Notes: generated by a model from the sequence alone, not told the origin. A DNA stretch of 64,000 nucleotides from Bacteroidota bacterium (GCA_035291905.1 DATDRF010000103.1:2805-66804), one strand, 5' to 3'. Shown: positions 36,369-40,383, numbered from the stretch's first letter. Made by a program: numbers and translations.

Positions 36369-38057
36369 ATGCCGAATCGGCTTTCCACCCGCCCCGCAAA
36401 GCTCCCTCGGGACGACAATCAACGGTCAAAAAAAGAACTTCTCAAAGAACTGAGAATGCTTCGCCGTCAGTACGTGAACTTGAAAATCCTCAAGTATGAG
36501 CACGACAAAGCTCTTGCAGCGCTGAAGGAAAGCCAGGAGAAGTATCGCAGAATTGTCGAAAGTGCGAGCGACATCATCTACCGAACAGATGAGCGCGGGT
36601 ATTTCACGTACGCCAATCATGCTGCAGTTCGGATCATCGGGTATCCGATCAAGGAGATTTTGGGCAGGAATTACATGGAGCTCCTCCGCCCGGATTATCG
36701 TAAGAAAGCGTATCGTCACTACACGATGCAAACAGAACAGCGGATCCCGAGCACCTACTTCGAATTCCCCGCCGTGTCAAATGAGGGTGAGACTGTTTGG
36801 CTTGGACAGAACGTTCAGCTGATCATGCAAGGGAAGAAGATCGTCGAACTGCAGGCGGTCGCAAGGGATATCACTGAGGTCAAACGCGCGGAGGAAGAAA
36901 GAGCTCGTTTGGAGGTTCAGCTTCGCCAGTCCCAGAAAATGGAATCGATCGGGAGGCTTGCCGGCGGCATAGCTCACGATTTCAACAACATCCTGGGAAT
37001 TATTCTCGCCCATGTCAGTCTCCTGGAGCGTTCCGATCTTCCTGCCGAACAAAAGTCTTCAAGTATCGAAGCCTTGAACAGGACAGTCGGATGAGCCAAG
37101 GGAATGGTCGGTGAACTCCTGACCCTGGCGCGAAAGAGCGAACCATCATTGGAGTATCTGGATGTCGAAAAGGCAATTCGGGAATTTGCCCCGGTCATCG
37201 AGGGGACATTCCCGCGGTCGATTTCATTGTCGATTCGATGTACGCGGGGATTGCCCGGCATCGACGCCGATCCGAACCAATTTCACCAGCTTCTCCTCAA
37301 TCTGTTTGTGAACGCGCGCGATGCCATGCCCAATGGGGGGAAGATCGAGGTGACAACCGAACAATATTTCGGCGAGTCTGTGCGGATGATATTTCGGGAA
37401 GCGGAAGAAACGCCGTACGTCGGGATCAGGGTGAAAGACACGGGCATCGGAATGGACGAGTCCACGAGGGTGCGTATCTTCGAGCCGTTCTTCTCTACAA
37501 AGCCGCAGGGAAGAGGAACGGGCCTTGGGTTGGCTGTGGCATACGGAATCATCAAGAGTCACCGTGGATTTGTCGATGTGGAAAGCAACCCGGGAAAAGG
37601 ATCGACGTTCTTCTTGTTTTTTCCGAAGGGGGTCCGCACTCCAAGGGCGGCTGCGCCCGTGCGGAAACAGGCAACTACCCCCGGTGGGAATGAGACGATT
37701 CTCTTTGTCGAGGATGAAGATCTCCTCCGTGAAGTCATATCGAAGATACTGAAAGAAAAGGGGTACACGGTCCTTGAGGCAGTGGACGGAATAGGGGCGG
37801 TCGATGTATTCATGAAGAATCATAAGCAGATTGACCTTGTGCTTTCCGACTTCGGATTACCGAAACTCGGCGGATGGGAAGCGTGCATTACGATGAAGGA
37901 AATCAAACCTGAGGTGCGGGTCATTCTGGCGAGCGGCTTTATTGAGCCGGCAGTCAGGAATGAAATGGCAATAGCGGGAATCACAACGTTCGTCCAGAAG
38001 CCTTACGTCCCTGACGAGGTTCTGCAAAACATCAGGGAATTGATGAAAAAGGGATGA
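36369..38057 (+). pseudogene. Hybrid sensor histidine kinase (PAS, HisKA, HATPase_c, REC) interrupted by an in-frame TGA at 37092-37094
   Basis: Track ORFs 36369..37094 and 37104..38057 are in the same frame. The stop falls inside the HisKA helix: ...IAHDFNNILGIILAHVSLLERSDLPAEQKSSSIEALNRTVG*AKGMVGELLTLARKS.... Downstream are N/G1/G2 boxes (NARDAMPNGG, DTGIGMDE, GTGLGLAV) and a receiver (ILFVEDEDLLREV...LVLSDFGLP). Confidence 0.6.
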
Positions 38058-38065
38058 CGTTTTCT

Positions 38066-38259
38066 GGTAGTGGGTCAGTTTGATGTAATCTTCAACGCGA
38101 AGGCGCAGAGGTCGCAGCCGACCATTCCGCCATATTGAAATGGTGAATTGATCACTTCGGCAGGCAGGTCTGCGTCCTCCCCGCCTGCCTCAAAGATCTT
38201 ATTGAGGCGGGCAGGCGCGACTCTGCGTTGTAGTCTAGTATTGAAACTGACCCACTACC
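38066..38259. mobile_element. MITE-like nonautonomous element copy A (194 bp): 16-bp perfect terminal inverted repeats, 8-bp target-site duplication CGTTTTCT
   Basis: Left TIR GGTAGTGGGTCAGTTT (38066-38081) is the exact reverse complement of AAACTGACCCACTACC (38244-38259). Direct repeats CGTTTTCT lie at 38058-38065 and 38260-38267. Internal core cacttcggcaggcaggtctgcgtcct and gcgactctgcgttgtagtcta is shared with copy B at 55594-55750. Confidence 0.7.
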
Positions 38260-38419
38260 CGTTTTCTTGAAGTCAGGGTGAAAGTTTTGTATTTTCCATT
38301 ATTGCACGCGCCCGTACCCGCCAACATCACCCACGAACGCTTTTTTTGTGAGTGGCAGTGATTTTTGAGCGTCCCGCCACAAGGCGGGATCTGGACAAGT
38401 GCTTCAAAGAATTTCATAG

Positions 38420-38493
38420 CCCCCGTAGCTCAGATGGATAGAGCAGCGGTTTCCTAAACCGCTTGTCGGACGTTCGAGTCGTCTCGGGGGCAC
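38420..38493 (+). tRNA. tRNA-Arg (anticodon CCT)
   Basis: Acceptor GCCCCCG/CGGGGGC plus discriminator A; D arm GCTCAGATGGATAGAGC; anticodon arm GCGGT-TTCCTAA-ACCGC (CCT); T arm GGACG-TTCGAGT-CGTCT; CCA not encoded. Confidence 0.9.
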
Positions 38494-38505
38494 AATCGGT
38501 TTCAC

Positions 38506-38568
38506 CGTTGTCGGACGTTCTCAGCCGTAGGCTGATCCGCCTTTGGCGGAGAGTCGTCTCGGGGGCAC
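38506..38568 (+). repeat. Direct duplicate of the 3' 34 nt of tRNA-Arg (33/34 identical), interrupted by a 30-bp insert forming two perfect 6-bp hairpins
   Basis: ccgttgtcggacgttc (38506-38521) and gagtcgtctcgggggca (38552-38568) match tRNA positions 38459-38493. The insert 38522-38551 is tcagccgtaggctga plus tccgcctttggcgga. No 5' acceptor strand upstream, so this is not a complete tRNA. Confidence 0.75.
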
Positions 38569-38723
38569 TATCTCCCGGGAATTTTGTGGGATTCGGAGTG
38601 ATTTGGATTTGCTTCCCTCATTGACTTTTTGGGGAAAAAGCGCAACTATGAAAAACATGTTTTCGGCCCCTCCCGCCGCAAGACTTCTCCACTGAGATCT
38701 CACTACTGGAACGGAGAGTTGTT

Positions 38724-40364
38724 GTGGATTCATCCCAAGCACTGAATGCCCTTCACTTCGGAAGAGTAGACGCAGAAACCGATTACCGGCTCAGCCAATG
38801 CTTCGTTGGGACAGAGATGCTTCGTCAGGCCCTGCTTCCCCAACATTCGCTCTTCATCGGCCCCAAGGGATCAGGGAAGAGCGCCCTCTTCAGACTTCTC
38901 TGCGATGACCTCGGTCCATGGAAATCGCTCCTGCCCAAGGGATATGAGATCATCTACAGAATCCCGGCCACCGGACTCCAGAGTGAGAAATACCTCTCGG
39001 GAGTCGACCTTGACGAGTTGAGCCCCCAGACGGCAAACGATTTTCGGTCTTTCTGGCTCCTGTATATCGGCCTCAAGACTGCGACGACCCTGGTGGAAGA
39101 CCAGCGGATGCAGCATCTTGCGTCACATGCAGAGAATAGTCGGATCAGGGAACAATACGCATCGTTGTCGCGTATTGTGAGAACGCTCGGTCTCGTCGAA
39201 GCGGCAAATTCCGTGGAAAAGATCAAACAGAAGATCGACAGTCTGATCGAATCCCCCGAGAATTCTCTGCCAATTTCGGGAGAAGTGGGGAAACGGCTGT
39301 CGGTGAGTTTCCGCAACCGCACCGGGATCGCCATTATCACGCTGCTCGATATCATCGACGGCCTCCTGCAGGAAACAAAATGCCTTTCCTGGATCCTTCT
39401 CGACAAGCTGGATCTCCTCTTCTTTGATGACATCACCAAACTGCGGACATCGATAGCCGGTTTGGTGCAGCTTCTTGTGGAATACAGCGACCGGTTCAAG
39501 AACATCCATTTCAAAGTCTTTCTCCGAAGGGATATTTATAAGCAGCTGCGGATTGTCAACAAATCTCATCTTGTCAGTTACACCCATGACATGAGATGGC
39601 GAGGGCCGTGGCTGATCAAGCTGTTGGTCGCGCGTGCGGTTTCCGACGAGCGTGTGCAAAAACACTGCGAGTCAATTGTGGGTGAACAAGTCGATGTCGG
39701 AAAGGTCATCAACGGCACCGACGAACTTGTCTTGAAGGTGTTTTATTCGATTTTCGAGGAGCGAATGGGGATCATCAAGCGGGAAGGATTCGGCCCGCAC
39801 ACGCACGAGTGGATTCTGAAGAGGCTGGTCGACGGACTTGGAATGAGCTTCCCGAGAGAGATTATCCATCTTGGGAACGTCGCTGTTCAGAGACAACGTG
39901 AGATTATCCGGAGAGAGGGCCTCTCGGAGCGGAGCAAGCTGGTTGGGGGGAGAGCTCTGCGCAAGGCATTCGATGCGGTGTCTGCGTACCGTTGTGACAC
40001 CTACCTCAACTCGGAGTTTCCTCACCTCGCCGGGCACATCGATGCCTTCCGCGGAAAAGAGGTATCGACGTTCGAGCGCGACGAATTGTATCGCGCCTTT
40101 GAAGAGTTACAGCCCAGCGGCGACGACGCAATCAGAGCTGTTCACGACGTAGGGCTCATTACTCCGATAGGAAAGAACGTCGATTCAGCGCTCAAGTTTG
40201 AGGTCCCTCTGCTGTACCGAAGTGGGCTCGGTATTGTTGAACGCAAGCTGAAGAAACGAAATCGGAAAGTTCGTTCGATGGAAGAGAAGAAGCCGCAGCA
40301 ATCGGAATACTCCAAGCCTGAGAAGAACGAACAGGAAGAAATGAACATCCCGCTTTCTCTCTGA
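38724..40364 (+). CDS. Orphan P-loop NTPase of unrecognised family (546 aa) with lysine/glutamate-rich C-terminal tail
   Basis: Walker A FIGPKGSGKSALFRLL (SMC/RecF/ABC-like GxxGSGKS), candidate Walker B WILLDKLDLLFFDD; GTG start with GGAG upstream; tail KKRNRKVRSMEEKKPQQSEYSKPEKNEQEE; no TM segments. Confidence 0.55.
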   Translation: MDSSQALNALHFGRVDAETDYRLSQCFVGTEMLRQALLPQHSLFIGPKGSGKSALFRLLCDDLGPWKSLLPKGYEIIYRIPATGLQSEKYLSGVDLDELSPQTANDFRSFWLLYIGLKTATTLVEDQRMQHLASHAENSRIREQYASLSRIVRTLGLVEAANSVEKIKQKIDSLIESPENSLPISGEVGKRLSVSFRNRTGIAIITLLDIIDGLLQETKCLSWILLDKLDLLFFDDITKLRTSIAGLVQLLVEYSDRFKNIHFKVFLRRDIYKQLRIVNKSHLVSYTHDMRWRGPWLIKLLVARAVSDERVQKHCESIVGEQVDVGKVINGTDELVLKVFYSIFEERMGIIKREGFGPHTHEWILKRLVDGLGMSFPREIIHLGNVAVQRQREIIRREGLSERSKLVGGRALRKAFDAVSAYRCDTYLNSEFPHLAGHIDAFRGKEVSTFERDELYRAFEELQPSGDDAIRAVHDVGLITPIGKNVDSALKFEVPLLYRSGLGIVERKLKKRNRKVRSMEEKKPQQSEYSKPEKNEQEEMNIPLSL

Positions 40365-40383
40365 CCCCCCCCCCTAAAAAATA

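Follow-up and report, generated by a model that had tools for sequence, protein, structure and literature searches.

A partial tandem copy beside a tRNA-Arg(CCT) gene, and the half-gene fragments and hairpin modules found at the same locus in related Ignavibacteria

Displaced fragments of tRNA genes have been described at the borders of integrated elements (PMC9897764; Reiter et al., 1989 and Williams, 2002, in the form in which they are cited there), and tRNA fragments bordering integrated elements are also the subject of Islander (PMC4383910). We have analysed a stretch of 64,000 nucleotides deposited as Bacteroidota bacterium (GCA_035291905.1 DATDRF010000103.1:2805-66804, one strand; the whole of it is called the window below), in which a tRNA-Arg(CCT) gene is followed by a partial copy of itself. 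The source is an Ignavibacteria-like bacterium; its prolyl-tRNA synthetase (ProRS) shares 75% identity with the best GTDB species representative, and among metagenome proteins the identity reaches 98%. Relatives were fetched through ProRS (their loci carry L numbers) and ca. 1.95 Mb of related DNA was searched. Like displaced fragments of the attachment-site (att) type, the copy is a direct repeat that runs from the anticodon stem/loop to the 3' end and is unable to encode a tRNA. Unlike them, it lies 4 nt from the gene with neither island nor integrase, its anticodon loop is partly deleted and its T-loop holds hairpins; besides, the loci of relatives have upstream 5' halves and covarying modules. 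We know of no integrase scar that carries 5'-half fragments or conserved covarying modules. The displaced att fragment is the nearest known category, and the window copy is an atypical member of it. The reading we favour, with a probability of roughly 55%, is that 38494-38568 is a non-functional partial tandem copy, an eroded member of an old and largely vertically inherited set of fragments that turns over by recombination between repeats, and that it would now be an inert part of the tRNA trailer.

In tRNA-dependent lysogeny the host tRNA gene is disrupted by a phage that does not rebuild it and brings a tRNA of its own (PMC10865867). Two of the related loci (L082 and L083) resemble this, with an intact tRNA-Arg of one type between 5' and 3' fragments of another, as though the resident gene had been split by an incoming one; unlike in that account, phage and integrase are lacking, the segment inserted would measure only ca. 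300 nt, and in the window all the parts are of one type. Small hairpin-forming insertions are familiar as bacterial rRNA intervening sequences and as Rickettsia palindromic elements. Mitochondrial GC clusters, double-hairpin elements and repetitive hairpin-forming elements also insert as hairpins (PMC4478555 and PMC2800124). What they share with our locus are short GC-rich (double) hairpins at the helix tips or loops of RNA genes, non-coding and sometimes nested, but those families are dispersed in many copies per genome, whereas the hairpins here occur at one locus and in non-functional copies. The 5' and 3' halves of archaeal split tRNA genes are encoded separately. Archaeal tRNA genes can also contain multiple or non-canonical introns (PMC3241643). 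Interruptions of the D-, anticodon and T-loops and separately encoded halves are found at our loci too. However, between tRNA positions 34 and 35 (34|35) there is no bulge-helix-bulge but a 1x2 internal loop beside a 4-bp helix and, unlike in archaeal split tRNAs, the halves overlap instead of completing one another, an intact gene is always present, and the host is a bacterium.

A partial copy four nucleotides from its gene

The gene and the parts of the copy are the following.

38419-38492, + strand: functional tRNA-Arg(CCT) gene (ARAGORN; Rfam RF00005, 62.2 bits)
38493-38496, + strand: 4-nt spacer CAAT from gene to partial copy (from the sequence; the layout of relative L008 is alike, 4 nt and then GGTTTC)
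38497-38507, + strand: the copy's anticodon-arm remnant CGGT-TTC-ACCG (by comparison with L008 and L011, the hairpin module R, described below, and CTAA are deleted)
38508-38520, + strand: copied variable loop, 5' strand of the T-stem and first three T-loop bases (TTGTC GGACG TTC), 13/13 identical to 38463-38475
38521-38550, + strand: 30-nt insert in the copy's T-loop, with two perfect 6-bp hairpins (from the sequence)
38551-38572, + strand: rest of the copied T-loop, 3' strand of the T-stem, 3' acceptor strand, discriminator base and 5 nt of trailer, 21/22 identical to 38476-38497

The ARAGORN and Rfam calls of the gene end at 38492/3, and no CCA is encoded. The copy proper (38497-38568) begins 4 nt past the gene and spans tRNA positions ca. 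28-76, without 5' acceptor strand or D arm; its first eleven positions, cGGTTTC----ACCG, correspond to the anticodon arm minus 4 loop bases, plus 1 further base. A sequence-only reading of this DNA had rightly recognized the tRNA-Arg(CCT) and the repetition of its 3' part. It had also put the copy 13 bp after the gene and limited the repeat to the last 34 nt of the tRNA: the copy does follow the gene and the repeat is real, but the spacer is shorter, as listed, the copy starts at the anticodon arm, and the direct repeat extends further 5' and reaches 4-5 nt past the tRNA end (CACAATC vs CACTATC). No tRNA or tmRNA was found in the copy by the Rfam covariance models (cmscan with E up to 10, 38494-38640) or by ARAGORN (38494-38700), in agreement with the earlier view that it cannot be a functional tRNA.

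The insert divides the copied T-loop as TTC|insert|GAGT, and its two stem-loops, TCAGCC-GTA-GGCTGA and TCCGCC-TTT-GGCGGA, are indeed the perfect 6-bp hairpins first described as splitting the copy; hairpins of this kind have a background frequency of 0.47 per kb in the window. The minimum-free-energy fold of the RNA, however, favours a single long irregular helix that prolongs the T-stem (-33.7 kcal/mol, z = -2.45) over two hairpins, and the 157-nt stretch as a whole folds far better than shuffled sequences (z = -4.28). No further copies of the insert or of its two hairpins were found in the window or the fetched loci, the metagenome contig L001 excepted. There is no duplicated overlap at the insert junctions, and therefore the insert itself is not an att junction.

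The repeat is neither accidental nor a product of assembly. With as many as 3 mismatches permitted, the window contains the 17-mer GAGTCGTCTCGGGGGCA two times, while shuffled controls gave 0.17 matches on average and 0/100 of them reached two. The same arrangement is present in the independent contig L001, which carries a different haplotype (a nearby insertion resembling a miniature inverted-repeat transposable element, MITE, is absent there), so an assembly artefact is not the explanation. Together with the homologous structures in many independent assemblies, this leaves chance similarity or artefact with a negligible probability, its one argument being that metagenome assemblies are in general fragile at tandem repeats.

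The comparison that decides against an island lies within the species. Locus L162 is 98.4% identical to the window at the nucleotide level over 9.7 kb and therefore belongs to the same species; its gene order is that of the window and the 160-nt upstream region is identical. Its tRNA runs straight into what, in the window, comes after the second copy, the 75 nt from 38494 to 38568 being absent. A loss or a gain of 75 nt is the product expected of recombination or slippage between the 22-nt repeat arms. Copies would thus be removed through the direct repeats common to gene and copy, leaving a conspecific strain with one repeat copy and none of the 75 nt, and would probably be regenerated or homogenised through the same repeats. 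In all, three haplotypes were observed: the window (copy and MITE-like insertion), L001 (copy only) and L162 (neither).

The 3' end of the copy also takes part in a second structure.

38557-38585, + strand: terminator-like hairpin TCTCGGGGG...CTCCCGGGA, then ATTTTGT; its 5' arm is the copy's 3' acceptor strand (suggestive only)

A terminator scan gave 1 site in 1 kb, to be read against a shuffle mean of 1.8, so that the count is not above chance. The hairpin, a putative terminator, is also present in L162, where the 3' strand of the real tRNA provides the 5' arm. We believe that the block is most likely inert, transcribed within the 3' trailer and providing one arm of this hairpin; RNase Z would cut the trailer off because the CCA is not encoded.

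Half-gene fragments and hairpin modules in related Ignavibacteria

In three Ignavibacteria clades, with ProRS 63-65% identical between clades, tRNA-Arg(CCT) is flanked by 5' and/or 3' half-gene fragments. Downstream 3' units were identified in L008, L168, L011, L082 (two, in tandem) and L083. They consist of a spacer, GGTTTC | R module | CTAAACC, the variable loop, the T-arm and the 3' acceptor strand; the spacer is 4-16 nt in L008, L011 and L083 and longer in L082, and the unit of L168 lacks GGTTTC and the first R hairpin. A T-loop insert is common in these units, with 58 nt in L008 and L168 at the TTC|..|GAGT site used in the window. Upstream 5' units were found in L006, L169, L241 (115-nt units), L164, L165, L083, L011 and L086, and are composed of tRNA positions 1-34 (or 1-15), an L module, CTAAAC and a flank of ca. 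30 nt before the real gene, with an additional D-loop hairpin insert in L006 and L083. The junctions are uniform, GGTTTC|T(C/T)CC and GGGA|CTAAAC, i.e., between tRNA positions 34 and 35; all inserts sit in loops (D, anticodon or T), and extra hairpins are nested within hairpin loops in L011, L083 and L165. Units and modules are wholly absent from L004, L007, L009, L166, L012 and L013.

The window unit fits into this family. Both it and the unit of L008 have a 4-nt spacer followed by GGTTTC; R is absent from the window, and GGTTTC|ACCG is what remains once R and CTAA are deleted. Upstream of the gene there are two further features.

38316-38407, + strand: L module upstream of the tRNA (nhmmer profile from 8 loci, E = 6.7e-19)
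38308-38318, + strand: what may be a highly degenerate trace of a 5' tRNA fragment, gCGCCCGTAcC (weak; compared by eye with L164, L241 and L165)

Relatives carry GCCCCCGTAGCTCAG right before the L module, where the window has 38308-38318, and both the window and L162 have kept the module with at most a trace of the 5' fragment. In the lineage of the window, R would have been deleted, the 5' fragment would have almost vanished, and a 30-nt double hairpin would have come to lie in the T-loop.

In their tRNA-like parts the fragments are mostly identical to the adjacent gene (35/36 in the window, 40/40 in L008 and L011, 36/36 in the units of L006), which suggests that gene conversion or frequent re-duplication may be at work. 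However, not all fragments match the gene they surround. In L082 and L083 "type 1" fragments (GCCCCCG...) lie around a "type 2" central gene (GGCCCCG...), and in L083 the type-1 5' and 3' fragments still match each other despite the type-2 gene between them. Type-2 tRNA-Arg(CCT) (GGCCCCG...CCTTTGGTTGGAGG...) occurs in L008, L012, L082 and L083, which are polyphyletic on the ProRS tree, and is near-identical among them although their ProRS are 64-65% identical. To judge from these comparisons, it may have spread by gene-sized horizontal replacement or else reflect an old paralogy.

Some of the arrays are elaborate. Upstream of its intact tRNA-Arg, L006 (7084-7780) has at least 3 near-identical tandem 196-nt units, together with one that is older and degenerate; a unit comprises tRNA positions 1-40, a D-loop hairpin of ca. 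48 nt and an L module of ca. 75 nt at 34|35. L082 (1072-1700) has a 306-nt tandem duplication with a type-1 3' unit, the junction being filled by CGTTC and two hairpins before a 17-nt repeat of the end of the host type-2 tRNA, a layout like that of the window insert. The R hairpin loop of L083 (1210-1352) holds a further nested insert of ca. 50 nt, and the more distant relative L026 (3860-3960) has a degenerate, near full-length tRNA-Arg-like sequence ca. 60 nt downstream of the intact gene. Among 18 other tRNAs checked for nearby copies we found two 12-nt matches for tRNA-Val (L081) and a full-length tandem pair of tRNA-Met (L073), and nothing else. Microhomology-mediated unequal crossing-over at CTAAAC or TTCC was considered for the origin of the 5' units and rejected, as the predicted and observed junctions disagree on inspection.

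The modules themselves are structured. In the first L hairpin ATCAC (38326-38330) pairs with GTGAT (38358-38362) around a conserved loop, CCACGAACGC...GTGAGTGG, which across relatives reads ACGAACG...GTGAGTGG; it has 9 consensus pairs, 6 of them with compensatory changes. The second is TCCCGCC-ACAA-GGCGGGA in the window (38372-38389) and TCCCGCC-N3-4-GGCGGGA in general form. R also comprises two hairpins, the second a bulged helix of 18-21 bp with an invariant GTTAGC...GCTAAC tip; there are 21 consensus pairs in the R hairpin, 6 with compensatory double changes, and two G-U and no A-C pairs on the tRNA strand. In the related DNA the nhmmer profiles of L and R match only beside tRNA-Arg(CCT), and 10/12 hairpins of the form CCCGCC..GGCGGG are at this locus (1.9 Mb). 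Module variants broadly follow the ProRS tree and host clades, as judged by eye rather than from a module tree. The modules appear to have been under some constraint, because neutral intergenic DNA would not stay alignable at such depth. An essential role is countered by the lineages without units, by the usual incompleteness of the units and by one species being polymorphic for the 3' unit. No Rfam family was found for fragments or modules, only true tRNAs being matched (the window at the gathering threshold, the copy and L083 at an E-value threshold), and no description of such tRNA-Arg arrays in Ignavibacteria was found in the literature. The combination of 5'/3' half-gene arrays, loop-specific inserts and covarying modules confined to one locus is previously undescribed in the literature we found.

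Could these be functional parts? The fragments and modules might form a structured RNA or a cis-element of the tRNA-Arg(CCU) unit, of which the window copy would be a reduced version still in use. The roles proposed are leader or trailer processing, termination, mimicry of a tRNA half, or an outer split tRNA-like clamp (GCCCCCG upstream, CGGGGGC downstream) embracing the real tRNA. The covariation in L and R and the absence of A-C pairs on the tRNA strand, with its two G-U pairs, would be expected of such an RNA, as would the retention of the modules across clades at 63% ProRS identity with apparent vertical tracking (by eye), the inserts that all fall in loops and thus preserve tRNA-like stems, the agreement of the L083 fragments with each other around a gene of the other type, and the stable fold of the 157-nt stretch. 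We nevertheless think it unlikely: the unit is present or absent within one species and totally missing in L004, L007, L009, L166 and others, units are usually 5'- or 3'-only, truncated or degenerate, and Rfam has no family for them.

The same regularity can be seen in another light, that of mobility. The modules could be small non-autonomous mobile inserts that target the loops of tRNA-Arg(CCU) copies, inserting after TTC with ends T(C/T)CC and GGGA and no target duplication, or a self-homing cassette (L-flank-tRNA-spacer-R) whose insertion at 34|35 splits the resident gene and adds one 5' and one 3' fragment per event. With such a cassette one would expect the central gene to be enclosed by a 5' and a 3' fragment, and a type-2 gene to lie among type-1 fragments, as in L082 and L083, where type 2 is moreover polyphyletic on the ProRS tree; repeated nested insertion would also fit the tandem arrays of 5' units (L006, L169, L241). 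Identical junctions across loci, a T-loop site equal in three lineages, the nested hairpins of L011, L083 and L165 and the patchy distribution point the same way. Module and insert ends are T(C/T)CC...GG(G)A and no junction shows a duplication, but only most of them follow TTC, the D-loop inserts being exceptions. Further, the modules are never off this locus in the 1.95 Mb, no transposase, integrase or endonuclease linked to fragments or modules was found, the variants seem to track host clades without sign of recent horizontal spread (by eye), the type-2 tRNA of L012 has no modules, and the L082 array is a plain tandem duplication. We consider mobility of either kind improbable.

Two other candidates for the inserts were rejected. 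A tRNA intron (group I or archaeal bulge-helix-bulge) would require a complete interrupted copy, and there is none at any locus, nor does Rfam find an intron family; as to hallmarks, the inserts are 30-165 nt long, follow C34 and end in A, and on inspection the 34|35 junction accommodates neither a bulge-helix-bulge nor group I features. Junctions made by a tyrosine or serine recombinase were discarded on inspection, the attL-like and attR-like junctions sharing no overlap sequence. A dispersed element similar to MITEs or to repetitive extragenic palindromic (REP) sequences is not supported either, neither the 30-nt insert nor the two modules having copies at unrelated sites in the searched DNA.

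Several observations weigh against an old, inert and vertically inherited copy, the reading we favour. Vertical descent needs ca. 4 losses in clade A (L162; L164/L165/L241; L166; L169), and the copy may instead have been gained recently in the window lineage. No alignment is possible between the 30-nt insert of the window and the 58-nt insert that L008 and L168 have in the corresponding position. An old inert copy that is still 35/36 identical to its gene would need gene conversion or recent re-duplication, both of them hypothetical. Besides, L and R are ca. 85-88% alike between clades whose ProRS are 63-65% identical, and every insert is in a loop, which argues that the ancestral units, at least, were probably under selection and not simply junk. 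Finally, 5' fragments and loop inserts are left unexplained by the classical 3'-end att model. We hold as a less likely possibility that the L/R modules and half-gene fragments constitute an undescribed system of Ignavibacteria, either a structured RNA or cis-element of a rare-codon tRNA or a protein-less loop-homing element (34|35, 56|57), with the copy in the window as a form of it that has decayed or is minimal. For the family as a whole three readings stand side by side: relics of ancient att-type and tandem duplications with hairpins kept as leader or terminator structures, a tRNA-linked structured RNA, and a protein-less loop-targeting insert or cassette.

The context is unusual whichever applies. 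One rare-codon tRNA gene sits, across a clade, amid arrays of its own halves, and the modules keep their structure by compensatory changes over deep divergence and occur nowhere else in the DNA examined. Should they prove to be functional RNA or an element that targets loops, a tRNA-linked system of a new kind would be at hand, and bacteria would have a counterpart to archaeal tRNA genes that are interrupted or split. Were they only debris, they would record how a tRNA locus can gain, lose and homogenise tandem copies unusually fast, even within one species.

Attachment-site fragments and the island question

Viral contigs were scanned twice with the 3' half of the tRNA. The scans gave full phage tRNA genes and, in addition, partial fragments that begin (c)GGTTTC|CTAAACC or TTC|CTAAACC and reach the tRNA 3' end. 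The neighbourhoods of 10 of these fragments were inspected; 7 adjoin a long open reading frame (ORF), and all 7 ORFs are tyrosine integrases (Pfam). The boundaries of the window copy, from the 5' strand of the anticodon stem (cGGTTTC) to the tRNA 3' end, are those of the phage fragments, which makes an ancient, att-type (integrase-generated) origin of this kind of fragment plausible. The copy would then be a fragment of the kind that integrases displace, and one that bounds nothing now. The R-module motif gave 0 matches in the viral contigs.

The contigs, phage or prophage, with a tRNA-Arg(CCT) 3' fragment beside a tyrosine integrase are L204 (189-1566; IMGVR_UViG_3300032093_013413), L235, L226, L182, L171, L240 and L194. 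The fragment of L204 ends in CGGGGGTAC, as do the tRNAs of L007, L009 and L086, and that contig may, by this likeness, be an element of related hosts.

The sequence-only reading had gone further and taken the duplicated end as an att-like footprint, either the scar of a decayed or excised island or a sign that the remainder of an island lies to the right, where an orphan NTPase is encoded. The likeness to integrase-linked fragments survives our comparison, as just described; the island and its integrase do not. The neighbouring genes have housekeeping or signalling functions and are, in order, glgB, a response regulator, a PAS histidine kinase, the tRNA, a 546-aa protein, proS, an aldehyde dehydrogenase and dnaE, and the 546-aa protein is the NTPase in question.

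38724-40364, + strand: Sll1717-family P-loop ATPase, 546 aa (NCBIfam NF047389, E = 7.7e-47), context outside the element

It weakly matches a candidate defence protein (PADLOC PDC-M28C, 8.8e-14), and its orthologue in L008 is 67% identical. Most relatives have tRNA-Arg(CCT) directly upstream of proS with no ATPase between. The gene is found there in one subclade only (window, L162-L166, L168, L008 and L241; probably also L167, whose contig ends inside the gene upstream of proS), whose ancestor acquired it between the two genes.

Could the two copies still be attL and attR of an excised or decayed tyrosine-integrase element, with the ATPase as its remainder? The boundaries shared with phage fragments, 7/10 of those inspected adjoining an integrase, would suit this, and a gene confined to one subclade and weakly similar to a defence protein fits an old insertion beside a tRNA. 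However, the ATPase lies outside the repeat pair and is present irrespective of the copy (in at least 8 relatives), with L162, L164, L165, L166 and L241 having the ATPase and no copy. Beyond it, in the ATPase-proS spacer, there is no displaced tRNA fragment, the local alignment scores being within the shuffled range, and no recognisable island borders were seen around it. A recurring match there, CAGTCGGTTTC, was examined as a distal tRNA remnant and turned out to be the ATPase gene's own terminator. Between intact gene and fragment there is no foreign DNA, only the 4-nt spacer. A tblastn search with 7 integrases that target tRNA-Arg(CCT) gave a best E of 0.35 in the window, and related tRNA-Arg loci yielded no hit, although very divergent recombinases could escape it, and Pfam finds no recombinase among the 8 neighbouring genes. 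Moreover, excision by an integrase leaves one repeat, not two 4 nt apart. The comparison of occupied and empty states proposed in the sequence-only reading could be made, since both exist among relatives, but between conspecifics they differ by exactly the 75-nt copy and by no island.

There is no present-day island bounded by the copy. For the locus as it now stands the att-pair and island explanation is largely refuted, and we consider it very unlikely. A duplicated tRNA 3' end is by itself no proof of an island border. Taken alone, the copy in the window is a dead tRNA fragment of an ordinary sort, and it mainly advises caution in island calling.

Two loci, L019 and L026, have ca. 4 kb between tRNA-Arg and proS and were also considered as islands; the genes there are ordinary ones (Mla transporter, peptidase M61), and neither an integrase nor a repeat is present.

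Some smaller features of the neighbourhood deserve mention. The MITE-like insertion that distinguishes the haplotypes is 192 nt long (38066-38257; region 38058-38265), and ends in terminal inverted repeats of 16 bp, perfectly matched (GGTAGTGGGTCAGTTT / AAACTGACCCACTACC), flanked by an 8-bp target duplication (CGTTTTCT); the conspecific contigs L162 and L001 do not have it, and the repeat has no further copy in the window or the fetched loci. The hybrid histidine kinase (PAS-HisKA-HATPase-REC, 36369-38057) is split into same-frame ORFs of 241 aa and 317 aa by a stop at 37092-37094; L001 has the split too, while L162, L164, L166, L168 and L008 have a single kinase ORF of 561-566 aa. The split is likely due to a nonsense substitution and not to a frameshift, given the gapless alignment of window and L162 across this gene. 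A run of ten C at 40365-40374 comes just after the stop of the ATPase, upstream of the gene's terminator, a position at which the sequence of the relatives is mixed.

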